Below are positions 9,413-27,790 of a stretch of DNA of 32,569 nt, one piece after another (position 1 is the stretch's first letter; every line of letters begins with the position of its first letter). The notes under the pieces were generated by a model. That model did no database searches, was not told where the DNA came from, and saw only the letters and a program-made list of their open reading frames with translations. The stretch covers positions 1-32,569 of the IMG/VR virus record IMGVR_UViG_3300032884_000029; one strand, given 5' to 3'. A program made the position numbers and the translations under genes. Source of the DNA: a virus (lineage: Duplodnaviria; Caudoviricetes).

Positions 9413-11248
9413 ATGCTGACTTACGGCGGACTCAAGCAACACATCGTTCTCGCTCTCGGAGGCCAGCCTTCGGTAGTGTCAGGTGTCAACCGCGATCAGC
9501 GGATTGCTGAGATCGTCAATCAGGCTGGCAACTATCTCTTCTCGAAGTCATGGCGTTTCCGCGAGAGGACTGCTCGTCCAATTTCAGTGGTTGCCCAACA
9601 GGACTACGCTCCGCTCCCAGGTGACGCCGAAGAGATTATCTCCCTGACTTGCAGGGCTGGACTGGGTTGGCGTGTGGAGATGACCAGCCCAGAGAACATG
9701 GAAATGATGAGGACCAGTGCGTTCCCATCTCTTTCCACAGGTTCTTACTACGCGGCAATGGCTCGCCCGTGGGCGCAAGCAGGAACAACAACTCCACTTG
9801 TCGATGGATCGGGAATGCCGTCCGTCCGATTGGAATTGTTTCCAACACCAAACGTAACTAGTTCGGATGCTTTGATCATCCGATATCGAGGATCGTGGGT
9901 TCCAGTCAGCGGCGAGACTTCGTCGATGACTGCCGATGTTTATCAAATTCCTGTCCCTGCATACGCCGAAGCGCTTCTCATTGCGTATGCACGGGCCTTT
10001 GGGCTAGCCTATGAAGACGAAGGTCTTTCGGCACGGCTCATCGAGATCGACCAAGGTCCGCTATTCAATGCGGCGGCGATCAAGGATGGAATACAGCAGC
10101 GAGACTATGGGAGGTTGCTGTCGAATCGTGTCAGCCCCTTTCGTCGAGAATCCTCAGCGGTATCGTCGGGGGTATGTGGAGTAGGAGCGCCAGCATCGTC
10201 CTTCAGCAACATTCGCTGGAGGGGTGTTTACAGCCCATCCGAAGCCTATGTTGTAGGTGACGTGGTTCGGTATGGAGGCCGATCCTACATCTGCGTTACA
10301 GACACGACGCTAGTGGACCCTCCTGCCTCGCAGTGGGAGGTGATGGCTGCTGATGGTGCCGATGGCAGTTCTGGATCAAACGGCGCTGCAGGGGCTACAG
10401 GAGCCACTGGTGCCACTGGTGCCACTGGACCGACTGGACCCGCTGGAACATCTGGCGCTCCTGTAGACGCTCAATATGTGGTCATGGCAGCGGACGGCAC
10501 TCTTTCAAATGAGAGTGTGCTGACGGCTGGTAACCATGTAACCGTTTCTGCTGGTAGTGGACTAGTGACCGTCGATGGCCGAATCAACAGGCGCAAGCGC
10601 TCTTCTTTGTTCTCCGACATGAACGCTGCTGGCGACTGGTCAAACTACTCAAGTGGAACTGGAGTATCAAACACCTTTTCCACCGCTAGTATTGCGGACG
10701 GAAACAGGGTTGGTATTTGCGTTCACGGAACTGGAACAACTTCCTCTGGACGTGCTGGAGTTGGTTCAATTGCTACAGATGCTGTTGGCTTTGGATTGTC
10801 TGAGCATCGGCTATACGCCTGTGTCAAGATTCCAGTCTTGTCTGTTGTGACCACCGCAGAGTTTATTGTTCACATCGGATTCAACGATAGCCAATCCGCT
10901 CTTGCGGCAGATGCTCTTGTGTTTCAATCTCCACGGGTTGGTCTTGGTGAAACAACGTGGCGGGCATGTTCTCAAAATAACTCAGCAGCAGCCAGTATTG
11001 ATACTGGTGTAACGCATGACACCAACTTCCACTCATTTGAAATCATAGTGAACGCTGCTGGAACATCGGCAACGTTCTATATCGACGGCGTCTTGGTAGC
11101 GACATTTGGAACAGGGCAGATACCAAAGATCACAACACTTCCTGCGCGAGCGCTTGGAGTGGTCTGTGGAATCATCAAACTCAACGGGACAACTGCGTCT
11201 CTCCTGTATACAGACGCTTTGGCTCTCGACATCGAATGCAGTAGATAA
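9413..11248 (+). CDS. Head-tail adaptor fused to CBM-like, collagen and ConA-like fibre domains
   Basis: N-terminal ~240 aa follow the podoviral adaptor pattern (TYxxLK..I, VNQA...W, YxxLPxD, LELFPTP, IIRY). Then WRGVYSPSEAYVVGDVVRYGGRSYIC (CBM5/12-like), 12 Gly-X-Y triplets, and a C-terminal lectin-like domain. Confidence 0.72.
   Translation: MLTYGGLKQHIVLALGGQPSVVSGVNRDQRIAEIVNQAGNYLFSKSWRFRERTARPISVVAQQDYAPLPGDAEEIISLTCRAGLGWRVEMTSPENMEMMRTSAFPSLSTGSYYAAMARPWAQAGTTTPLVDGSGMPSVRLELFPTPNVTSSDALIIRYRGSWVPVSGETSSMTADVYQIPVPAYAEALLIAYARAFGLAYEDEGLSARLIEIDQGPLFNAAAIKDGIQQRDYGRLLSNRVSPFRRESSAVSSGVCGVGAPASSFSNIRWRGVYSPSEAYVVGDVVRYGGRSYICVTDTTLVDPPASQWEVMAADGADGSSGSNGAAGATGATGATGATGPTGPAGTSGAPVDAQYVVMAADGTLSNESVLTAGNHVTVSAGSGLVTVDGRINRRKRSSLFSDMNAAGDWSNYSSGTGVSNTFSTASIADGNRVGICVHGTGTTSSGRAGVGSIATDAVGFGLSEHRLYACVKIPVLSVVTTAEFIVHIGFNDSQSALAADALVFQSPRVGLGETTWRACSQNNSAAASIDTGVTHDTNFHSFEIIVNAAGTSATFYIDGVLVATFGTGQIPKITTLPARALGVVCGIIKLNGTTASLLYTDALALDIECSR
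10355..10462 (+). repeat. Collagen-like (Gly-X-Y)12 coding repeat
   Basis: GAD GSS GSN GAA GAT GAT GAT GAT GPT GPA GTS GAP; tandem GCCACTGGT units in the DNA. Confidence 0.9.
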
Positions 11249-11953: not shown

Positions 11954-12044
11954 TGGTGTATGGACACGGTCAGAGAATTCAATTGTTGTTCCAGAAGGCT
12001 GGTATTTACTACCACCGTCCTACATGACTGAGGAAACCCCATGA
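11805..12044 (+). CDS. Outer-membrane lipoprotein spanin (Rz1-like, putative)
   Basis: Start reassigned to ATG 11805 (or 11811). Signal MLMLTARLCVLLLFAF plus lipobox VLGC; Pro-containing mature part; ATGA coupled to the next gene. Confidence 0.6.
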   Translation: MLMLTARLCVLLLFAFVLGCGSRTIFVPESSPMRIAEPNGARMRVYHRVDGVWTRSENSIVVPEGWYLLPPSYMTEETP

Positions 12045-13144
12045 CTGCGAAGATCCAAATCCGACGCGACACCACTGCCAACTGGGGTACAGATCCAGTA
12101 TTGAACAGTGGTGAATTTGGACTTGATACAACTCTCAGCCAACTCAAGGTCGGTACTGGTGCTGTTTGGTCAGCAACCCCTTGGTTGACGGGTTCTCTTC
12201 CGTACTTCGGAAGTCCAAGTTCTTCTGATTTGAACGATGGAACAAATCGTGTTGCTGGCCGATACCGCTTTGTGAGCGCCACTGCTTCTCCAACAAATGG
12301 CCCTTTCACCTTTGCGGTGGACGACGGAATTGCAACGCTGCTTGTCACCGCATACGGAGACACCATTGCCCAATTCCTTTCTACTGAGGGTAATGGAACT
12401 ACATCATTCCCATCCAAGAACTACTTTCGCCTCTATGACGGCGGATCGGCTGCTTGGCGCGCATGGATGCCGCTAAGCAACTGGGCAACTGGAGCAGCCG
12501 TTGGCACTCCGATTGAATGCACGACCGTCAATGCCAAAGGCGTTGTCACTATTGCTGATGGAGTGGTAGGCGCTCCAGCAATTGCGTTTGCTAGCGACAC
12601 CGATACGGGTCTTTACTGGAAGGCTGCAAATCAACTTGGTATTGCGGTCGGCGGCACTCTAAGCGCGCATTTTACTGCCACTCAGTTGGTTACTAACAGC
12701 ATCAGTTGCACCACTACCAGTGTTTTGACTGGCAATTGCTCAATGGGAGGCACTCTTGGAGTCACTGGCTTAGCCACCTTCAGTGCTGGAGCAGCAATGA
12801 ATGGATTTAAAGTGACTGGAGTCGCAGATGCCACTTCCCTCACCGACGGGTTGAATCTGCAATCGCTGCTGGATCGCATTGCCATCATTGCTCCTGCAAG
12901 TTCAGTAGGTAATATCTACACAGCATCAAACGGGGCAAGTTGGACATTGACTGCGCTAAATCCAGTCACATGGACAGCGACCTCTCCTAGTGGCGGCAAT
13001 TATGACGGGATCATCATTGCTTTTGACGGCAACGGAGCATTACTGCCAGCATTCTGCAAGGTTTTCAACAACGATCCTTCCCCCATTGTGGCAAGTGCAG
13101 GCGCAGCAATATACGCAATATTGATTGCGATCAAGAGATCGTGA
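12041..13144 (+). CDS. Tail fibre with Mtd_N/hyaluronidase-type N-terminus
   Basis: KIQIRRDTTANW...PVLNSGEFGLDT...LKVGTG, then a knob-like segment (DLND...WRAW), APAIAFASDTDTGLY, and a YadA-neck-like KVTGVADATSLTDGLN. Confidence 0.8.
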   Translation: MTAKIQIRRDTTANWGTDPVLNSGEFGLDTTLSQLKVGTGAVWSATPWLTGSLPYFGSPSSSDLNDGTNRVAGRYRFVSATASPTNGPFTFAVDDGIATLLVTAYGDTIAQFLSTEGNGTTSFPSKNYFRLYDGGSAAWRAWMPLSNWATGAAVGTPIECTTVNAKGVVTIADGVVGAPAIAFASDTDTGLYWKAANQLGIAVGGTLSAHFTATQLVTNSISCTTTSVLTGNCSMGGTLGVTGLATFSAGAAMNGFKVTGVADATSLTDGLNLQSLLDRIAIIAPASSVGNIYTASNGASWTLTALNPVTWTATSPSGGNYDGIIIAFDGNGALLPAFCKVFNNDPSPIVASAGAAIYAILIAIKRS

Positions 13145-18206: not shown

Positions 18207-21200
18207 TGAACGATTCTAAAAGTCGGACATTTGCTCGCGAGTTGTCCAAGAAACTGCAGCCGTTTAAGGCTAATCCTAAATGGCTAGAGCAAAGTTCTTC
18301 TGGTGATCTCTTTAGACAATCGTCTGTTGCAAGTGCGACAGACGATATTTTAAATGAGTTCGATGATGCTGCATATATGCAACTAGCCAAGTTGCCTATT
18401 GAGGGATCAATTCAAGCGGTCGCTCCAAAGGATCAGGAACAGGGTTTGATTCGGACTGAGGTGGCGGGAAGTACGGCGTCTCACCGATATGAATCAACTA
18501 ACCCGATGGTCAACCAATTCGTTGCCGCGCGTAGGTTGAACTACCAGAATGGGAAGCCGTCTCCAAAGTGGGATGATTTTTCCAAGAACTATCGTGGAAC
18601 GGCCATGACGATGGTTCAGGGTCTTATCTCCACGGCTACCACTGGCTTTGAAGGCATCATGGGAGGTATGGCTTCGGGCATCTTAGAGACTGAAAAAGCA
18701 GTCGGAGACGATGAATTTGAGTGGAAGGACTACCTTCCTAATTCCACGTTTTTTCCAAAGGCTGACAAGTATTCTCCTAGTGGAAACTACTTGGCTTCGA
18801 GCGAAAAGGGCCAGCAGGAGATTGCTTTGGCAAAGAGCGATCCAAATATGGCCAAACAGTTTGAGGAGAATCGCATTGAATTGCGGACGCTTGCTGGGCA
18901 ACAGGCCGCTAAGGCTGCCAAAGAGAATGCCCGTTCAGTAACGAACTTTCTCACCTTTGGATTTGCGTCAGATCTTGCTGGCCCTGATCCAAATAACCCA
19001 AGCCTCATCAATGAGCGACTTGGCCGTGGTTCAAGTCCAGCATTGGTCAAGACCGCAGAGATGCTTGGTTCTGCCATTGGAACTCTTCCAGTCGTAGTTC
19101 CTGGAATGTTGCTTGGGCGCGCAGACTTGGCTGTCGCATCCACTATTCCGTTCTACTGGAGTGGGTACAACCAATCTTGGGATAACCGATACAACGTCTG
19201 GAAGCAGCAGCGGCAGTTTGCAGAGGAAAACGGCATTGACATGCCTTTGCCTCCATCCATGTCTGACATGGAATCTGCTGCCACTATGCAGGGACTCATT
19301 GAGGTTGGATCTGAAGGAACGGGAAACCTGCTAACGCTAGGAGTTCTCAAGGCGCCTTCAGTCGGCAATTTCGTGCGTTCCAAGTTGGGAATGACCCCAA
19401 AGATTAAGCCTGCAATCATTGAACCGACTCTGTCCGAATTGGAGCGGCAATTTGCGCGCCCAAGGGGATGGAAGAAGGCAGTGAACACGGCAGAGAAGAT
19501 TGTGGTGGCAGGTTTGATCGAAGGCCCGCTTGAAGAGGGAGTCCCACAAGTAGGTCAAGTAATCCTGGACAAGTTTTACACGCCACGGGAATACCAATCG
19601 TCGTTCTTCACTGCTGAAACTGCGGAACAAATGACTGTTGGTGCTATGGCGGGAGGCATGTTTGCTGGCTACTCAGAGGCAAGCACTGGCCTCAAGGCTC
19701 GAAGTGCCGAAGCAAAACTTGCTGATGCCATCGAAAAAAATGACATGACGTCAATTGTTTCTGGCGAACTGATCAAGGCTCAGCAAGAGGCCAAGATCGA
19801 GATGCTGTCGCCAAAGGCTCCTGTTGGCAAGGAGGGCAAGACTAGGTTCTCCATCTCGACTAACGCTACGTCTGCTCGCGGTTCATCGATGGCGATGGCG
19901 CAGTTAGACGACATTGCTGCTGGAAAGCGCTCTGCGCTGTTTGTTGAGCCGAACGATGTTGCGGAAACGTTGACTACAGGAGTCAAGGCCCGCATGGATG
20001 CGTTGCAAATGACGCTCAATCCAATTGCGATGGTCGGTGGCAAACTTGTCTTTACGTCAAAGGCCAAGGTGCAAGAAGTTCTTGGCATGATTCAGAACGA
20101 CGATGCTGAGGGACTAACTGGCCACCCAGTTATGTGGACTCAAGAGTCTGGACTCGCCGTTGGCGCATTCGTATTCAGGGATTCTAAGAACGACATTGCC
20201 GATGTCGTTGTGTATTCCGATTCTGAACAGGCTAAGACACAAGTATCAATGATGGAGCATCGCGCTGGCCTGTCTGGCCAGACTGTTTCTGTAGTTGAAG
20301 GTGAAGAACTCGCATCGATTTCATCTACCGTCCAGAAGCAAGTGAACATGGATTCGCTTGCCAACGGAATGCCTACTCAGGCTCGACGTGGACCAAGCAA
20401 GAAGCAGAAGATCCGTGGGCGCATATCGGTAACGATGGCCGTAGAAGACGACGCTGCCCTGTCAAAGCAGTCAAAGGTTGATGATCAGGGGTATGTCCAT
20501 GAGCATGATCCCGAAGCGCCTTTCTCTTCCCCATACCTGTCTGTACAAGAGGTCGGTGGAGCAAAGAACAGCGACGTCACTGTAAAGGCGAACATCTCAG
20601 AGGTCCCTGACGCCAAACTCTCTGAAGGAGAGCGGAAACTCAAGGCCGCTGTTACATCTCCGATCATCTTGGAAGGCGACGTGACCTTCACCATCAAGAA
20701 CAAAGATGGTTCTAAGAGGGTGATCAGAAAGCCAACTCGCCAAAATGGAATGTTCTCCGAACAGGCCACCCCAGATGGGTTGTTTCTGTTTCGTGACAAC
20801 AAGGGGACCGCGTTCACTGCTCGCAATGCGTGGGCTATCGCGCTCCATGAGATCACTCACGGGATCGGTCGATCTACCAAGGCTGGCGCAGAATTCATCT
20901 CTAAACTAGTCCACCTTGACCCCGTGTTTGCTATGAGCGGAGGCGCTCGCTACATGTCAACGCTTGGTGGAGATCCACGAACCAGGGGCATGTCTGAGCC
21001 TCAAGTAATCTCGTATTACGCTGGTCTGTGGCGCGCCGCCACTGCAATCCTTGCCGACGAGAAGTCCACGCGCGTACAAAAGGAAGACGCGCGGGAGGGC
21101 CTTGCGCGAGTTAGATCCTTTGCAGAGGAATCGACCGCGACGGTCCATGACGTCCCATCAGATAACGTCACTGCACGGGCAATTGAATGGGAGACATCAA

Positions 21201-24200
21201 CTAAGAATTCCCATAACAGGAGTTGGAAGAATTTCGCTGACTGGCTTTCCGCTGTACTTGTTAACCACAACTACTCAGGCAAGGAAGCCAAGCAGGCGGT
21301 ATTCACGATCAAGCAGATCATGGAAGGCGCCAGCGCAAGCGAGATGAAGGTCCATTCCGACTTCTCAAAGAAGGTTGAGAGCAACTACCTCAATTCAATG
21401 GCTCGATACGGTCGTGCTGTAACTGCTGCTGGTGGACCAGAGGCAAAGCCTGCTGCTGCTACCGCTCAGACTTCTAACGCTGCTGCGCCACTTCCTTCGC
21501 TTCGTCCTACTGCAACTGAGGGCGTTGGCACGTTCATCAACGCAGACGCAGATCAGCGTAAGCGGTCCGCGCCCAAGTCAGACGCAATGAGTTCTTTGAA
21601 GCCCCGTGGAAGGGGGCCTATTGAAGACGCAAAGGCCGAAGTTGCTCGTCTTGGTCGAGAGTCGATTTCCGACAGCAATACCTTCTTCAAGCAGCGATGG
21701 GCAACTCTGCTTGCTGGAACTGGCAAACAGTTGGCGCTTGACCCGAAGAACTTCAATAAGGCTGCAAAACTTGCGATCAAGGACATCGCGGTGTTCCTTC
21801 GTGATAACCCGAAGTTTTCTGACTACTACAGGAAAGACTGGGAAGTAAGCCGATCAATCTTGTCAGACTACATTCAGCGCCCGATTACCGAAGACGAAAT
21901 GTTGTTCTTCAGGGTATTTGCTGGGTTGAACTCGCCCAACACCAAATTGCCTAGCAACATGGGTGATGCGGTGAATTTCCTTCTTCATTGGATCAAGGCT
22001 GGATCTTTCTCTCAGATCAGGCTTGGGCCAAAGCCAGGCACTGGGACGATCATTGTCGAAAGGTCGCCGTTCCCGATCAGCGGAACTACTGCAAATATCA
22101 AGAGCAGGTCGGTCAAGGCTGTAGAGAAACTGGTTCGGGAACTTGGTTCAGTAAAAGCCGCTGTTGAACATCTTCAAGAAGAAGTGCCTGTCAAGGAACT
22201 CCATGCCTTTAAGAAGAGCATGGGCTACAAGGGCGGCGTTGGCGGCATCGGGAACATCAAGACCCTGGTGATGGAAGCCACTGGACAGGACACGAACATC
22301 CCTAGGATGTTCATCTTTGGACAGAAGGTTGGCGCCTACACGCTCAATGCGGTCGGTGATGGTCGATACACGACCATTGACATCTGGGAATCCCGATTCA
22401 TCCGCAGTTACTTTGAGAAAATGTTTGAGAATAACACTGGTCTGCCCGTTGGCATGGCCGAACACGATGTGTTCACTGAGTTCAACAAGATCTTTAAGCA
22501 AGAGTTTGAGAAGCAATCTGGAACTGTGCTGGAAGCATCTGCTCTCCAAGCCATCCGCTGGTTCTACATCATCGATTCAGCCATGAAGGCTGGGTACAAC
22601 AAGGCGACCACCAATGAAACCATCAGTTTCTACACCGAACGAGCGCTCAAGCGCAAGCATGGATATGTCCCTTCAAAATCTGATAACGGCGGTGGGCGAC
22701 AAAGCGATGCTGATCGCGCAGCAGCGGGAGTCAGTCCGAAACCGCAGTATGCCGAAGGAAAATTTGGAAAGCGCGCCCCAGGGTACGGAGGAAGCCTCGC
22801 GCGTCTGAGGGACAAGAAGTTCTTGACGATGGCAAAGCGCGGGACGCTGGCAAGTCTTCGAGAAACGCTAGACGATCCGTCTAGCGGTCTTACCCCAACT
22901 CAAGTCACCTTCTTCTCCGCCTTGGGTCGCGGAATTGATGCCATCAGCACCGATGATAAATTCAAAGCCACTCCTGATAAGTGGCGCCAATACATCGGCA
23001 AAATGGTTAAGGACGGGAAGATCAAACAGACTGAGGTTGAGTGGTCTGGTGTTCTTGACTACATAAAGATGGTTGAGAACGAAGCGCTATATAGATTCTC
23101 ACAAGAAGTGAGAGATTTTGATGGAATAATTGGAGATGGACCAAAGTTAGATGACCAAGTAACCAAAGAGAACATTCTCCTAGTTCTTAACCAAAGCGCC
23201 GTTGCGAAGATTCTTGTGCTGAGGCAGGGTTACATACCTCCAGATATTACAAGCGAGCAAACGGATCCCTCTAGCCCCCAGTACCAGTTCACTAATACTG
23301 GAAACCGTGGTGATTACGGGCCGACATCTCGTTATGAAGGTCTTTCAACGCCCAATACCGAAGACTATGTCGAAGAGATTTTGAAGTTTGAAGAACCCAC
23401 TGGAGTTGCCCAAGACGAATTTAATTGGAGAAGCCCCCACTGGCGGTGGCAAGGCGTTATCGCACATGTCAGACGTGTTACCAGAATGCTTGGTGCCATC
23501 AAGGAAATGCTCGTTGATGAGGCGCAATCTGACCAAGGTCAGGCGGTTAACAAAGTAGTTGATGGCAAAAGAGTTGGAATGCTTGATCGGATTAACACGT
23601 TTCCACAAAGAGAGGAGCATCTTTCCCGCTTGGCTATGTATGCAAGGAATGATGCTGCGGAGTGGGCAGATCTTGCTGTATTGAATGAGGCTAATGAGTA
23701 TTTTGATTACACCGCTGACAGACTTTTATGGGCTTATTACTCTCCAAATTGGTTAAGAGATCATTACAGCGCTAACCAAGGGCTTCCGAATCATTCTTGG
23801 CTTGAGTCAGGGCAAAGAATGGATCTCGAAGAGAAATTCTTTAGAGGCTACATAGCCCCTCTAACGGTTGAAGATCCTGAAAACCCTGGTGTTATGACAT
23901 CGAATGAAGCCTTGTATGAAAGGCAATTCAAAGCCGTTAGGGAAGAAGGAAAGGCAAATGAAAAAAAGTTGCCAGCAGCGCCATTCTTTGAGGACACAAG
24001 TGCTTGGCTTAACCTTTTAATTCGTCACACCATTATGAGGGCGGTCAACGAGGGCTTTGACCAGATTGCAATCATTGATGGAGAAGCGGCGGTCCAGCGA
24101 TACAGAGATGCATTGACTGAGGCCGTTGGACTTGTGGTAATTAAACCGAATACCGAATTTGACGGCTTCTATGACTTTGAGGTTTACTCAGAGGTTGCAG

Positions 24201-27200
24201 ATCGCACTCCTGTTGCAACAAAGTCTAAGGTGAAAGAAATTGATATCGCTACTTACTTCGGTGAGGACGCGGCCAAGCAATTGGTTGAGGAAGCAAAGAA
24301 ATTTAAGGCGCCTGTAGAGGATCCTCAGATAAATGAAGAGGAGTTGACGGTCGGACAAAGATTCCAACGAGATCGAAAGCGACGAGGCGCACAAGTAAAG
24401 GGCGCTGATATTCGATTTGGCGGTCACGGAATGCGCGTTTTCTACGATCAACACTATCCAGCCGCGCTTGCTAAGCAAATCAGAATGCTGGGTGGAACTG
24501 GACTTGAAACAAGAGTCGAAGAACTCACTCAAGATGAAAAGGATTTGAACGAGGCAATCAACCAAGACGGTCCATTGCGAAATTTAATCCGAAGACAATT
24601 CTCTATCAACGACCCCGATTTCTGGATTCATTCCACAAACCTTACGGACGACGGCTCAAATTTTGGTGTACATAGAGGACTTGCGATTGGTGGAACAAGC
24701 AGTGCAACACCACAAGAACGTAATTACACGGCGGCTAATTACGATCCCTTGAGCGCTGTGCGAACCGCAATACAGGATGGAAAACGAGTTATTCTTGCTG
24801 TTGCAACGAAGCAGTATGAATTGTATTGGACTTCCCAAAATCGTTGGGATAGTAAAGATAGCCGTACTGTAATTTGTAGTACTGAAGCGCAATTAGATGC
24901 TCTCATCACAGCGCTTGCTGAACAAAGCGCTTCTAATCGCCCATATGGGCCAGTACAAGCGCGTTACAATCCTGACGACAATCCAGATCTCGCCCCCATA
25001 TTTACTTACTTGCCAATAGTTGCTTGGGCGAGACTTGATCAGCAGGGGTGGGGAAAGCCAACCAAAAATACGCCCGTAAAATTCGTAAAGGTCAACGACG
25101 CGGTAAGAAAAAACGTTCGGAGGCTTGGTGGCCTTTCAATGTTCTCTATGCGTATTGGCCCTGCGGGCGTCAGAGACGCCGCTGTTCAGCAGATCTTCGA
25201 TAAGTTCGATCCTCTGCTGCAGTACGCGCGCACTGCTGCTCCGCGACATCCTGGAGGCAACCTTCCCGACACACACAACCCATATCTGGGTGCCAGATTG
25301 TTGGATAGCCTCAACGGCGGCATGATGTTGGCCGCAAGGCGCCGAAATTCTGCGTTGCTTCGCTCTATGGCAAACAACGGCATTGAACTGGAGGTCATGG
25401 ACCAGTTCTTGTTGGCACAACATGCAGAATCCCGCAACGCGGTCATCGCAGCGCGTCATCCTGGAGATCCTGCTTGGGCTGACGGTGGATCTGGCATGAC
25501 CAATCAGGATGCTGCGGATCTTCTCAATGACGCGGCGATGACGGGCGCCTTGCCACAACTACAGGCTCACGCAGATCAGTGGCGAGCGATCTTGACTGAG
25601 GCGATGGACAACCGACAAGCGGAAGGTTTGATCACAGGCGACTACAGGCGCCGTCTTGATGCGATGTGGAAGAACTACGTTCCACTGCGCGGACAGCCTG
25701 TTGAACCGTTTGATGAGTTGTTCGAGAACTACGACAACATGATCGGCAAGTCGTTGTCTACGGAATCGCTTGGGCTTCCATCAGCCACTGGCCGCAGGTC
25801 TGTGGCAGAGGGAATCACGTCGCAGATTGCGTTCGTAGAGGAAGACACGATCAGGCGCATCAATCGAAATCAGATTGGTCGAGCGTTTCTAAATCTTGTT
25901 CTCGATACAAACGATATCGGGATGGCGCAGGTAATTACCCCAAATCCAACCGTGACCAGACTGGTCAACGGTGTTGCGCGTGTCATGCACGACAACAGGT
26001 GGATGCTTGAAGACCGAAACTTCGGCCTGTACACCAATCAGGACATGACCATCAACGGTCATGACTACCAAATTGGCGATCAGATCGTCATCCAAATCAA
26101 CAACCCTCGTTTGCTGACTGCTCTAAAGCAGCCAGGAGTTGACATCGGGTGGTTCGGCAGGGCGATTCAAACGGTGGGAAATGCTTGGCGGTTCATGACC
26201 ACAGGCATGGGAAATCCTGCGTTTGCCCCTGTCAACTTGTTTCGAGACGTTGGAATGGGCCTCATCACCAACTATTCGCAAAGAGGTGTGCGCGATACGT
26301 TGGGAATGCTTGGAAATTACGCGGGGTCATTCGCAAACGTTTGGGTGGACAACTACCTGAACAGAGGTCCAACTGGACATAACGCGGATTGGGTCGCGGC
26401 TGGTGGAGATCAGATCCGATCTAGCAAGCAAGATTTGCGGGAGAAGTCAGAAGAGTTTGACCGCCTGTATGCGATTGCGGCTCGACGAGATCCCAATGCC
26501 CAATCAGTGTTGCGAATGGCTGGCGGTTGGTATCCCGCATTCTTTGAGGCAAGTGAGAAGGCCACTCGATTGGCTACCTTCAGGCAGCGCATCGAGGCAG
26601 GAGATACAGCACCCCAAGCGGCACTTGCATCTAGGGATATCACTGTGGACTTTGAGAAGGGCGGCATCGTCAAGCCAATTCTCAACAACAGTTACATGTT
26701 TATGAACGCAGGTCTTCAAGGAACTGCAAACGTCCGTAGAGCGGTGTTTGAAACACTGACGTTGGCGCCGACGCTGTTTGCGTTTGGATTCATCATGTCC
26801 ACCCTTGCCCGATTCATGTCGGGTCGAGATGAAGAGAAGGACCAGTGGAACTACGACTCCCTGAGCGATTACGAGAAGTCTGCGTTCATGCACTTCTATT
26901 CGCCATCAGGTAGTGGTCGTTACATCGCCTTGCCGATGGCCTACGGCTACAACGTATTCACGTCGATGGGCGCTCGCGTCAGCGACGTTGTGTTCGGTCG
27001 CGGCAAGGCTGGCGATCTGGCAAGCGGGATGATTTCCGATGCCATGAATTCATTCCTGCCGTTTGGCGGAAGCGGCATTCGAGAGGGCGTCACGCCGTTT
27101 GCTAACTCGATGGCTCCAACTATGGTTCGCCCTGTGGCGGAACTGGCAACCAATACTGACTGGCAGAACAAGCCGATTTACCCCAAGGGCATGGGAAATA

Positions 27201-27790
27201 CTGGTCCCAATGCATACAAGGCTTGGGATCAAACGCCAGAGGTGTATATGGACATTGCCGACTGGGCTAACCGCATGTCGGGCGGAGACAAGTTCAAGTC
27301 TGGCACGTTTGATTTCAGCCCCAACCAGTTGCAGTATCTGGTCGGCTACTACTTCAGCGGAACTGGGAGAATCGTGGACAAAGTGGTTGGGATGTATCAA
27401 AAGGAAACACCCATTGAACCTCGCGATATACCAATTGTCCGCTCGTTTGTAGGAAACCACAGCAACGACAACCGCCGTCTGTCGCAGCAGTACTACGAGA
27501 TTTCCAAAGAGACTGATTCGGAAATGCTCAGGCTGCGGGTCCTCAAGTCAAAGGAAACAACGGCAGCAGAGAAGTTGGAAGCCAAGTCTGGTCAGAATCT
27601 GGGTATGGCCAAACTGGGAGTCGAGATTGGCAAGATCGACAAGATCCTCAAGAACATGAAAGAGATCAAGTCGTCGCCAAATGCAACCCCTGCTCAGTTG
27701 TACGCAATTGAACAAGCGCGGACGAGGCTCATGAATCGCGCAATAAAGATGAAGAACCAGTTGACAGACGAGGAGAACGGAGTACGCTAG
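18206..27790 (+). CDS. Giant polyvalent internal virion/ejection protein (zincin, HhH-glycosylase-like, GNAT-like and LPD38-type domains)
   Basis: 3194 aa uninterrupted. EGxxEE/GAxxGG membrane region, HEITH at 20846-20860, GQK...TIDIWESR...LQAIRW, DEAQSD/GMRVFYD module, and C-terminal NPAF..NLFRD, ITVDF, ELATNTDWQNKPI and SPNQLQYL (LPD38-type). Confidence 0.82.
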   Translation: MNDSKSRTFARELSKKLQPFKANPKWLEQSSSGDLFRQSSVASATDDILNEFDDAAYMQLAKLPIEGSIQAVAPKDQEQGLIRTEVAGSTASHRYESTNPMVNQFVAARRLNYQNGKPSPKWDDFSKNYRGTAMTMVQGLISTATTGFEGIMGGMASGILETEKAVGDDEFEWKDYLPNSTFFPKADKYSPSGNYLASSEKGQQEIALAKSDPNMAKQFEENRIELRTLAGQQAAKAAKENARSVTNFLTFGFASDLAGPDPNNPSLINERLGRGSSPALVKTAEMLGSAIGTLPVVVPGMLLGRADLAVASTIPFYWSGYNQSWDNRYNVWKQQRQFAEENGIDMPLPPSMSDMESAATMQGLIEVGSEGTGNLLTLGVLKAPSVGNFVRSKLGMTPKIKPAIIEPTLSELERQFARPRGWKKAVNTAEKIVVAGLIEGPLEEGVPQVGQVILDKFYTPREYQSSFFTAETAEQMTVGAMAGGMFAGYSEASTGLKARSAEAKLADAIEKNDMTSIVSGELIKAQQEAKIEMLSPKAPVGKEGKTRFSISTNATSARGSSMAMAQLDDIAAGKRSALFVEPNDVAETLTTGVKARMDALQMTLNPIAMVGGKLVFTSKAKVQEVLGMIQNDDAEGLTGHPVMWTQESGLAVGAFVFRDSKNDIADVVVYSDSEQAKTQVSMMEHRAGLSGQTVSVVEGEELASISSTVQKQVNMDSLANGMPTQARRGPSKKQKIRGRISVTMAVEDDAALSKQSKVDDQGYVHEHDPEAPFSSPYLSVQEVGGAKNSDVTVKANISEVPDAKLSEGERKLKAAVTSPIILEGDVTFTIKNKDGSKRVIRKPTRQNGMFSEQATPDGLFLFRDNKGTAFTARNAWAIALHEITHGIGRSTKAGAEFISKLVHLDPVFAMSGGARYMSTLGGDPRTRGMSEPQVISYYAGLWRAATAILADEKSTRVQKEDAREGLARVRSFAEESTATVHDVPSDNVTARAIEWETSTKNSHNRSWKNFADWLSAVLVNHNYSGKEAKQAVFTIKQIMEGASASEMKVHSDFSKKVESNYLNSMARYGRAVTAAGGPEAKPAAATAQTSNAAAPLPSLRPTATEGVGTFINADADQRKRSAPKSDAMSSLKPRGRGPIEDAKAEVARLGRESISDSNTFFKQRWATLLAGTGKQLALDPKNFNKAAKLAIKDIAVFLRDNPKFSDYYRKDWEVSRSILSDYIQRPITEDEMLFFRVFAGLNSPNTKLPSNMGDAVNFLLHWIKAGSFSQIRLGPKPGTGTIIVERSPFPISGTTANIKSRSVKAVEKLVRELGSVKAAVEHLQEEVPVKELHAFKKSMGYKGGVGGIGNIKTLVMEATGQDTNIPRMFIFGQKVGAYTLNAVGDGRYTTIDIWESRFIRSYFEKMFENNTGLPVGMAEHDVFTEFNKIFKQEFEKQSGTVLEASALQAIRWFYIIDSAMKAGYNKATTNETISFYTERALKRKHGYVPSKSDNGGGRQSDADRAAAGVSPKPQYAEGKFGKRAPGYGGSLARLRDKKFLTMAKRGTLASLRETLDDPSSGLTPTQVTFFSALGRGIDAISTDDKFKATPDKWRQYIGKMVKDGKIKQTEVEWSGVLDYIKMVENEALYRFSQEVRDFDGIIGDGPKLDDQVTKENILLVLNQSAVAKILVLRQGYIPPDITSEQTDPSSPQYQFTNTGNRGDYGPTSRYEGLSTPNTEDYVEEILKFEEPTGVAQDEFNWRSPHWRWQGVIAHVRRVTRMLGAIKEMLVDEAQSDQGQAVNKVVDGKRVGMLDRINTFPQREEHLSRLAMYARNDAAEWADLAVLNEANEYFDYTADRLLWAYYSPNWLRDHYSANQGLPNHSWLESGQRMDLEEKFFRGYIAPLTVEDPENPGVMTSNEALYERQFKAVREEGKANEKKLPAAPFFEDTSAWLNLLIRHTIMRAVNEGFDQIAIIDGEAAVQRYRDALTEAVGLVVIKPNTEFDGFYDFEVYSEVADRTPVATKSKVKEIDIATYFGEDAAKQLVEEAKKFKAPVEDPQINEEELTVGQRFQRDRKRRGAQVKGADIRFGGHGMRVFYDQHYPAALAKQIRMLGGTGLETRVEELTQDEKDLNEAINQDGPLRNLIRRQFSINDPDFWIHSTNLTDDGSNFGVHRGLAIGGTSSATPQERNYTAANYDPLSAVRTAIQDGKRVILAVATKQYELYWTSQNRWDSKDSRTVICSTEAQLDALITALAEQSASNRPYGPVQARYNPDDNPDLAPIFTYLPIVAWARLDQQGWGKPTKNTPVKFVKVNDAVRKNVRRLGGLSMFSMRIGPAGVRDAAVQQIFDKFDPLLQYARTAAPRHPGGNLPDTHNPYLGARLLDSLNGGMMLAARRRNSALLRSMANNGIELEVMDQFLLAQHAESRNAVIAARHPGDPAWADGGSGMTNQDAADLLNDAAMTGALPQLQAHADQWRAILTEAMDNRQAEGLITGDYRRRLDAMWKNYVPLRGQPVEPFDELFENYDNMIGKSLSTESLGLPSATGRRSVAEGITSQIAFVEEDTIRRINRNQIGRAFLNLVLDTNDIGMAQVITPNPTVTRLVNGVARVMHDNRWMLEDRNFGLYTNQDMTINGHDYQIGDQIVIQINNPRLLTALKQPGVDIGWFGRAIQTVGNAWRFMTTGMGNPAFAPVNLFRDVGMGLITNYSQRGVRDTLGMLGNYAGSFANVWVDNYLNRGPTGHNADWVAAGGDQIRSSKQDLREKSEEFDRLYAIAARRDPNAQSVLRMAGGWYPAFFEASEKATRLATFRQRIEAGDTAPQAALASRDITVDFEKGGIVKPILNNSYMFMNAGLQGTANVRRAVFETLTLAPTLFAFGFIMSTLARFMSGRDEEKDQWNYDSLSDYEKSAFMHFYSPSGSGRYIALPMAYGYNVFTSMGARVSDVVFGRGKAGDLASGMISDAMNSFLPFGGSGIREGVTPFANSMAPTMVRPVAELATNTDWQNKPIYPKGMGNTGPNAYKAWDQTPEVYMDIADWANRMSGGDKFKSGTFDFSPNQLQYLVGYYFSGTGRIVDKVVGMYQKETPIEPRDIPIVRSFVGNHSNDNRRLSQQYYEISKETDSEMLRLRVLKSKETTAAEKLEAKSGQNLGMAKLGVEIGKIDKILKNMKEIKSSPNATPAQLYAIEQARTRLMNRAIKMKNQLTDEENGVR

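Follow-up and report, generated by a model that had tools for sequence, protein, structure and literature searches.

IMGVR_UViG_3300032884_000029 is a linear virus record (Caudoviricetes) that is about 79 % complete, and the window analysed here is the entire record of 32,569 nucleotides. Its plus strand carries, in order, terminase, portal, major head, SU10-type adaptor and tail genes, a block that closes with an open reading frame (ORF) of 3,194 amino acids (aa). After this giant ORF the minus strand carries RusA, primosomal and exonuclease genes. We describe a domain within the giant protein that resembles helix-hairpin-helix (HhH) DNA glycosylases and discuss which base it may excise (Table 1).

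Table 1. Coordinates of the giant gene, of the glycosylase-like domain and of their predicted functional elements
Feature	Position	Strand	Basis
Polyvalent (putative ejection) protein, 3,194 aa	18206..27790	+	ORF; LPD38; C-terminal matches to PHROG 14770/616/10691; last gene of the virion block
HExxH motif, aa 881; candidate zincin (MPTase-like) peptidase with a possible part in polyprotein processing	20846..20860	+	Motif alone
Mobile HhH-GPD/OGG-like domain, aa ~1137-1490 (folded part aa 1151-1490)	21614..22675	+	Homology span, model, structural matches
Ser1243..Asn1251 motif; aligned by eye, it takes the place of the Nth Ser39-Ala-Gln41 loop	21932..21958	+	Invariant in 121/121; in register with DUF7178 LSP..N
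Helix-hairpin-helix: Gly1372, predicted catalytic Lys1374 (22325-22327), Asn1381	22316..22348	+	Model helices 217-221 and 223-232
Asp1392 (predicted catalytic), which caps the following helix, with Trp1394, Glu1395 and Arg1397 after it	22379..22396	+	Model helix 243-250; invariance
Gln1448-x3-Trp1452, predicted guanine-reading/stacking helix	22547..22561	+	Conservation; end points of structural alignments
LPD38 domain, aa 2882-3078	26849..27439	+	Pfam PF18857, 135.5 bits, E 3e-39

A preliminary description of this DNA had proposed an HhH-GPD glycosylase/apurinic-apyrimidinic (AP) lyase-like domain at 21790..22580. The domain is real, but the homology is somewhat wider and covers 21614-22675. 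The peptide that had drawn attention begins at aa 1371 (22316), Lys1374 is indeed encoded by AAG at 22325 and Asp1392 by GAC at 22379, and the Ser/Asn motif upstream and the QAIRW motif downstream lie where they had been placed. The placing of the domain in a polyvalent protein is borne out by the LPD38 domain, the PHROG matches and the position of the gene at the end of the block.

Using aa 1180-1490 as query against proteins of 1,756-5,590 aa, we obtained 175 matches, and the 120 listed matches together with the query form a set of 121 sequences with 44-98 % identity. Residues Y1208, S1243, N1251, K1299, K1374, N1381, D1392, W1394, R1397, Q1448 and W1452 are invariant in 121/121; because these key residues do not vary, the motif is not due to chance. 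The Lys/Asp pair on which the earlier proposal relied is also invariant in 75/75 aligned non-redundant loci, 18 residues apart in 74/75, and is kept in two distant clades (35/35 and 11/11) at a spacing of 17-23. Gln-x3-Trp is found in 74/75 loci and in the distant clades (35 and 34 of 35 for the two residues, and 11/11). The hairpin is of the helix-Gly-helix form with a single hairpin Gly, G1384 is invariant, there is no conserved Pro, and no cysteine occurs within aa 1151-1490. Copies of the domain vary in length: locus L060 (9278-10690) holds a divergent copy with an insertion of ~100 aa between the Ser/Asn and Lys motifs, and DC33-type copies have a long insertion following the Asp helix. 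The insertions differ by clade and may tune substrate access. Scans of aa 1141-1500 against Pfam (E 0.1) and PHROGs (E 0.01) gave no match to the domain, and sequence searches of solved structures with the domain, its profile and the profile of the standalone relatives described below gave chance or repeat matches only.

The AlphaFold model built from the 75-sequence alignment has a mean predicted local distance difference test score (pLDDT) of 94.7 and a predicted template modelling score (pTM) of 0.91. In model numbering Lys1374 opens helix 223-232, the second of the helix-Gly-helix, and Asp1392 lies just before helix 243-250. We compared the model with 48,161 solved chains using VIA-align and found that each of the 22 best rows is either an HhH-type glycosylase or a fold relative (Z 6.4-10.3, 171-223 residues aligned), in agreement with the HhH-GPD-type fold suggested at the outset. 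The best row is Thermotoga TmOGG2 (Z 10.3, root-mean-square deviation (rmsd) 4.4 Å, 202 aligned, 8 % identity); others are NTHL1 (Z 8.8), MagIII and Nth (8.3), AGOG (7.1) and OGG1 (6.4-6.8), with ROS1 and MutY also present, and the first unrelated row has Z 5.7 over 88 residues. The top PDB row in Foldseek is Tga-AGOG (E 0.12). Against BFVD, 11 matches fall below E 0.001, all of them large proteins or fragments (673-1,477 aa) and several named polyvalent. Taken together, the model and the conserved residues make an active enzyme of the HhH glycosylase type very probable.

The same comparisons contain the amino acid/amine:DNA transferase (AADT) gp46 of PaMx11 (VIA-align Z 7.6) and one AADT row in BFVD at E 0.065, and inactive HhH sensors are known in END nucleases (available text of PMC12191111). 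That the domain modifies phage DNA as a Pplase/AADT-type transferase, or binds DNA as a sensor without catalysis, is nevertheless very improbable: the invariant Lys and Asp argue for catalysis, no kinase for 5-hydroxymethyldeoxyuridine was found among the 25 window proteins scanned (from a record that is incomplete as noted above), and Pplase2 requires a catalytic Cys, as the available part of PMC13458397 reports, which the domain lacks.

The closest relatives by search are standalone phage proteins of the family DUF7178 (PF23802). DUF7178 clusters rank first for the domain in the ESM Atlas (0.96-0.97). The PF23802 model scores 13.2 bits on the window domain (E 0.086), below its 27-bit cut-off, and 45/75 members match it at E up to 1 (best 2.3e-7); the Pfam family Ogg-HhH is absent from the matches of the domain and from the 25 families shown for the 75 members. 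With one DUF7178 gene above the cut-off as query we obtained 54 cultured phage records, and 538 viral stretches match the standalone type. Eleven standalone proteins align to the domain (hhalign 90.2 % and 86.9 %) with all core motifs in register, and Lys, Asp, Gln and Trp are present in 11/11. Judged by sequence, the domain and DUF7178 are distant relatives, with insertions in the domain. GenBank already labels some standalone members as glycosylase (MK4 gp76, Cece gp22) or N-glycosylase/DNA lyase (S-CRES3 gp63); NCBIfam had no credible match to any of the 11 proteins, and we found no mention of DUF7178 in the literature searched. Two further standalone DUF7178 genes, Tunturi_3 gp111 (L248:3965-4561, "portal protein") and Madraxi gp106 ("glycosyltransferase"), are likely misannotations.

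A model of a standalone protein (pLDDT 90.8) led to the same structural neighbourhood. Foldseek ranks AGOG, OGG2 and OGG1 first (best E 0.021, TM-score 0.55-0.58), and re-alignment of Foldseek's top 1,000, of which 50 rows are shown, places four OGG2 entries in the lead (Z 10.9-12.1, compared to 9.5 for Nth). Model residue 192 pairs with MjOGG2 203, which puts the standalone Trp on Trp198 and the final residue of the protein at 207, where OGG2 has its C-terminal sensor. The C-terminus is itself regular: 75/76 motif-bearing loci stop nine residues past the Trp, in Ile (80 close relatives examined), and 8/11 diverse standalone proteins stop 7-11 residues past it.

To estimate the substrate class we looked at the pocket helix. 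In the available text of PMC3397491, the residues that read and stack 8-oxoguanine (8-oxoG) are Gln315/Phe319 in hOGG1, Gln278/Phe282 in CacOGG1, Asp194/Trp198 in MjOGG2 and Asp218/Trp222 in AGOG. The structural alignments of the domain end with model residue 308 on hOGG1 325 and model residue 312 on CacOGG1 292; provided that the last helix is free of gaps, these end points place Q1448/W1452 on Q315/F319 and Q278/F282. The retrieved E. coli Nth sequence has K120 and D138, 18 apart as had been stated, and it has two His on its pocket helix and an iron-sulphur (Fe-S) motif with four cysteines. The domain, having no cysteine, has no Fe-S cluster. With an OGG1-like Q-x3-W and no such cluster, a guanine derivative is a likelier substrate than thymine glycol or methylcytosine, and from the modelled pocket a guanine-derived base is a fairly probable target. 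The analogy to Nth put forward in the preliminary description thus holds for the Lys-Asp spacing but not for kinship, as the nearest structural relatives are OGG2, AGOG and OGG1. A glycosylase for pyrimidine dimers or oxidised pyrimidines, with a role like that of Nth or DenV, would draw on that spacing, on the Nth-family rows at Z 8.3-8.8 and on the many aquatic loci. We consider it hardly credible given Q-x3-W where Nth has two His and given that OGG2 ranks above Nth in both models.

The embedded domain appears to be mobile. It is common to 120/120 listed homologues, while the flanking regions are common to ~5/120 and the C-terminal region to ~30/120; because the domain is shared while its flanks are not, we regard it as a cassette that moves from one scaffold to another, LPD38 and LPD22 types among them. 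The scans found 64 loci in viral collections, 88 in metagenomes (80 kept) and 8 in genomes, with duplicates between collections. Frames of at least 1,000 aa hold the domain in 133/141 re-aligned loci (viral plus metagenome, where 3 distant loci fell below the tblastn cut-off); of the rest, 6 run into a contig end and 2 have the domain divided over two frames. These split loci (L142:3-1840 and L144:9824-11322) may reflect a frameshift, a decayed gene or an assembly error. When searches were limited by length, 11 and 58 short proteins came back, most of them from short contigs, and the size of the family is a lower bound. Judged by record names, many loci come from aquatic samples. Lineage labels of Verrucomicrobiota are carried by 4/8 genome loci (L230, L233, L234 and L235 are contigs in single-cell or binned genomes so labelled, three of ~40 kb), and this phylum is a possible host group. 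In L056:6479-14281 a C5 cytosine methyltransferase domain (aa 742-1135) stands directly upstream of the glycosylase-like domain in the carrier polyprotein.

A distant embedded clade matches the domain (hhalign 98.5 %) and is represented in 346 viral contig stretches. It includes two cultured phages, Limnohabitans DC33 (gp45) and Octadecabacter BD1 (gp16), each with LPD22 and ART-PolyVal. These carriers were found via the distant locus L061; tblastn of the window domain against cultured phages gave only a chance match at E 0.8, and single-sequence viral scans found nothing. The GenBank record of DC33 (L148, PQ492659.1) is labelled Inoviridae, yet at 39 kb and with a 3,125-aa polyvalent protein it looks like a tailed podovirus. 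A literature search on the virion proteins of BD1 found nothing.

The standalone genes occupy a characteristic position, within 7 % of a record end in 24/34 records (taken from the 50 of 54 rows shown, once 11 duplicates, 1 masked row and 4 variants resembling SIO1 had been removed). Since the phages are related to one another, a binomial p-value for this count was rejected. The gene is gene 3 in ICBM2, A-4L and CRP-1, gene 5 in S-CBP2 and third from the right end in MK4, and in S-CRES3 and Tunturi_3 it lies mid-record among small unknown genes. From these positions the standalone genes are likely expressed early. It is therefore likely that phages deliver one enzyme class at time zero, either by injection or by early expression. 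The two forms point to an activity needed on arrival, a point that does not separate repair from conflict.

One conflict role suggested by gene neighbours is counter-defence, in which the enzyme would remove a base adduct installed by a defence system, such as ADP-ribosylated guanine, or would work with ART-PolyVal in the same polyprotein. By hand count ART-PolyVal occurs in ~20/120 listed homologues, and in DC33 gp45 and BD1 gp16 it lies just upstream of the domain; in S-CBP2 and P-SSP10 the standalone gene lies upstream of the RNA polymerase gene, a slot that in T7 is the place of anti-restriction genes. The ART-PolyVal count covers only homologues that carry the domain, the giant protein of the window has no ART match, and a Gln reading the Watson-Crick edge would be expected to leave no room for an N2 adduct. 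We rate counter-defence as decidedly unlikely.

We tentatively favour, at somewhat less than even chances, oxidised guanine in the incoming phage genome as the target, the enzyme being by analogy most likely a bifunctional glycosylase/AP lyase. Among the three functions offered in the preliminary description (repair of damage acquired in the virion, excision of base modifications installed by the host or its defences, and attack on modified host DNA), this choice puts repair first. The giant protein, likely packaged and ejected with the DNA as its gene position and protein class suggest, would be injected with the genome, and the domain would perhaps be released by the HExxH peptidase. In HhH glycosylase/lyases a Lys is the nucleophile and an Asp its activator. 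Following this family chemistry, the damaged base would be flipped into the pocket, where Gln1448 would read it and Trp1452 stack on it; with Asp1392 as activator, Lys1374 would attack C1', and a Schiff base would form and proceed to beta-elimination. Oxidised guanines would thus be excised from the incoming DNA, the site nicked, and host base-excision repair would finish the process. The least certain step is the substrate, namely 8-oxoG or FapyG (its formamidopyrimidine counterpart) acquired in the free virion. A precedent for a phage-borne repair glycosylase is T4 endonuclease V, the sole case in the available text of a jumbo-phage review (PMC7824862).

Several observations weigh against this interpretation, starting with the fold. 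Foldseek found no PDB match at E 0.001 (best 0.12 for the domain and 0.021 for the standalone model), the rmsd values are 4.2-4.9 Å, Z 10.3 is below the level of ~13 under which the tool advises caution for helical proteins, and E. coli Nth gives no significant match to the profile of the domain (0.1 %). At Asp+2 the domain has Trp, a position occupied by His in Nth and in most DUF7178. Our search for an OGG2 homologue suitable for residue-level alignment gave 0/5 and one weak, Nth-like match in 301 genomes; Lys and Asp were accordingly placed on OGG2 by the order of the motifs. In addition, hosts usually possess their own 8-oxoG repair. Lastly, the cargoes of polyvalent proteins are mostly conflict domains in the available text of PMC5512222.

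The queuosine-nucleotide hydrolase QNG1, which we take to be a fold relative within the HhH superfamily, is a further difficulty: for the domain it is tied with OGG2 (Z 9.8 and 8.8, 218-220 aligned), and it is the third Foldseek row. Hence the domain might be a nucleotide N-glycosidase that hydrolyses a free guanine-type nucleotide (a queuosine nucleotide or an immune signal) instead of acting on DNA, and its large insertions could close the DNA groove. The chance of this seems small, since the 50 rows shown for the standalone model do not include QNG1, and since DNA-contact positions of Nth have counterparts, by eye, in the hairpin Gly-x-Lys, in the Ser/Asn loop and in Arg1397.

The C-terminus raises another objection. 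OGG2 distinguishes 8-oxoG from G through the carboxylate of its C-terminal lysine (PMC3397491, available text). In the giant protein 1,704 residues follow the domain and this sensor is absent, so an OGG2-type sensor is impossible unless the polyprotein is cut, and any specificity for 8-oxoG is putative; the standalone clade ends in Ile and not in the sensor Lys. Glu1395 and the region of Gly1463-Tyr1464 are candidates for a substitute of the carboxylate in the domain. OGG2 minus its C-terminal residue retains AP-lyase activity and loses 8-oxoG excision according to the same part of that paper, a state resembling the embedded one. This, with the invariant Lys, would suit a pure AP lyase or an attack on host DNA, where the enzyme would harm the host chromosome by nicking abasic sites or excising common bases, or would process abasic sites left by host defence glycosylases. 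Such a role appears improbable: the invariant Q-x3-W base-reading pair would be superfluous for a pure lyase, and no toxicity data were found in the literature searched.

Retention of a guanine-type pocket together with loss of the OGG2 sensor is also what may be expected of an offensive glycosylase/lyase directed at hypermodified guanines (7-deazaguanine types) of co-infecting phages or the host, a phage-side mirror of the defence enzymes Dag1/Dag2. Dag1 has an HhH fold, is apparently bifunctional and fragments 7-deazaguanine phage DNA, as far as the available text of 10.1101/2025.10.29.685425 describes it. Delivery at time zero suits conflict roles, and QueC occurs in 0/34 carrier records (0/22 of those at least 90 % complete), so that self-attack is not excluded by QueC, a weak count given that most phages have no QueC anyway. 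PADLOC gave no match in 6/6 proteins with a library older than Dag, and such targets are patchy while the family is widespread. We consider this offensive role unlikely.

Alternatively, and more broadly, the embedded and standalone forms may be one widespread OGG2-derived weapon family, delivered at time zero in an ejection polyprotein or by the first genes, that dropped the 8-oxoG sensor and excises non-canonical guanines. It would act on 7-deazaguanines in the DNA of rival phages or of hosts, or else on adducts that a defence has installed, and would be a base-excision effector delivered by the virion, on the phage side the counterpart of the Dag and Brig defence glycosylases. We hold this hypothesis, targets included, to be possible though doubtful, with odds of roughly one in three.

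Outside the domain, the HExxH motif sits within aa ~100-1070, a region common to ~5 homologues, and scanning the giant protein found no Pfam family match there; a role of this putative peptidase in processing may be proposed from the available text of PMC5512222. The region aa ~1540-2300 (22820-25100) has a lower G+C content at third codon positions (0.36-0.46 over aa 1601-2300, compared to 0.5-0.65 in most of the gene), is shared by few homologues and contains conserved-looking His/Arg and Glu-x-Gln-Ser-Asp motifs. It is likely a second, recently acquired cargo region; aa 1539-2298 against the Atlas gave a best value of 0.84 to unnamed clusters and no usable lead. Elsewhere in the window, the adaptor gene (9413-11248) is fused to a carbohydrate-binding module and a collagen repeat, and the tail protein at 12041-13144 has an Mtd_N domain.

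The literature searched, judged mostly from titles and the starts of abstracts, contained nothing describing the glycosylase-like domain. At the level of annotation the enzyme class is known for standalone members; what is new is the delivery context of a known kind of enzyme. An unannotated domain and DUF7178 thereby gain a testable enzyme class and substrate class, across hundreds of uncultured phage contigs (64, 88, 346 and 538 matches in four scans), and base excision joins the activities proposed for injected polyvalent proteins. Cultured carriers are at hand in DC33 and BD1 (embedded) and in ICBM2, A-4L and MK4 (standalone). If repair is true, virions ship a repair enzyme for damage suffered outside the cell; if attack is true, the family would provide a new means of counter-defence or of conflict between phages, and might yield a reagent for modified guanine.

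Among known systems, DUF7178 shares with the domain the predicted fold class and, in register, Tyr, Ser..Asn, Lys, Gly-x-Lys, Asp and Gln-x3-Trp. It differs in size (190-230 aa versus ~340 aa with insertions), in context (standalone near the genome end versus embedded in a virion-block protein of 2,000-4,000 aa) and, in most members, in having His for Trp at Asp+2. OGG2 (Thermotoga Tm1821, MjOGG2, SsOGG2), AGOG and OGG1 share the Lys/Asp pair and a pocket helix with an acid or amide followed at x3 by an aromatic residue; compared to OGG2 the domain has the OGG1-type Gln for Asp, is phage-borne and has no free C-terminal lysine. Nth shares the 18-residue Lys-Asp spacing, Asn at +7 and Arg at Asp+5 but has Fe-S cysteines and a different pocket helix. 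QNG1 is a fold relative (Z 9.8) whose substrate is a free nucleotide, and Pplase2/AADT is another (Z 7.6), Pplase2 having a catalytic Cys and a metal that are absent from the domain (PMC13458397, available text). None of the Pfam LPD models covers the glycosylase-like domain. The word "glycosylase" is absent from the main text, as available, of the polyvalent-protein paper (PMC5512222, Iyer et al. 2017), where LPD38 is reported in phage polyvalent proteins only. The proteins described there resemble the giant protein in their LPD38/LPD22/ART-PolyVal scaffolds, late-gene neighbourhood and proposed co-delivery with DNA. Dag1/Dag2, as described in the available text of 10.1101/2025.10.29.685425, are alike in setting an HhH fold against modified guanine in conflict, and they differ in serving host defence where the domain is putative virion cargo.

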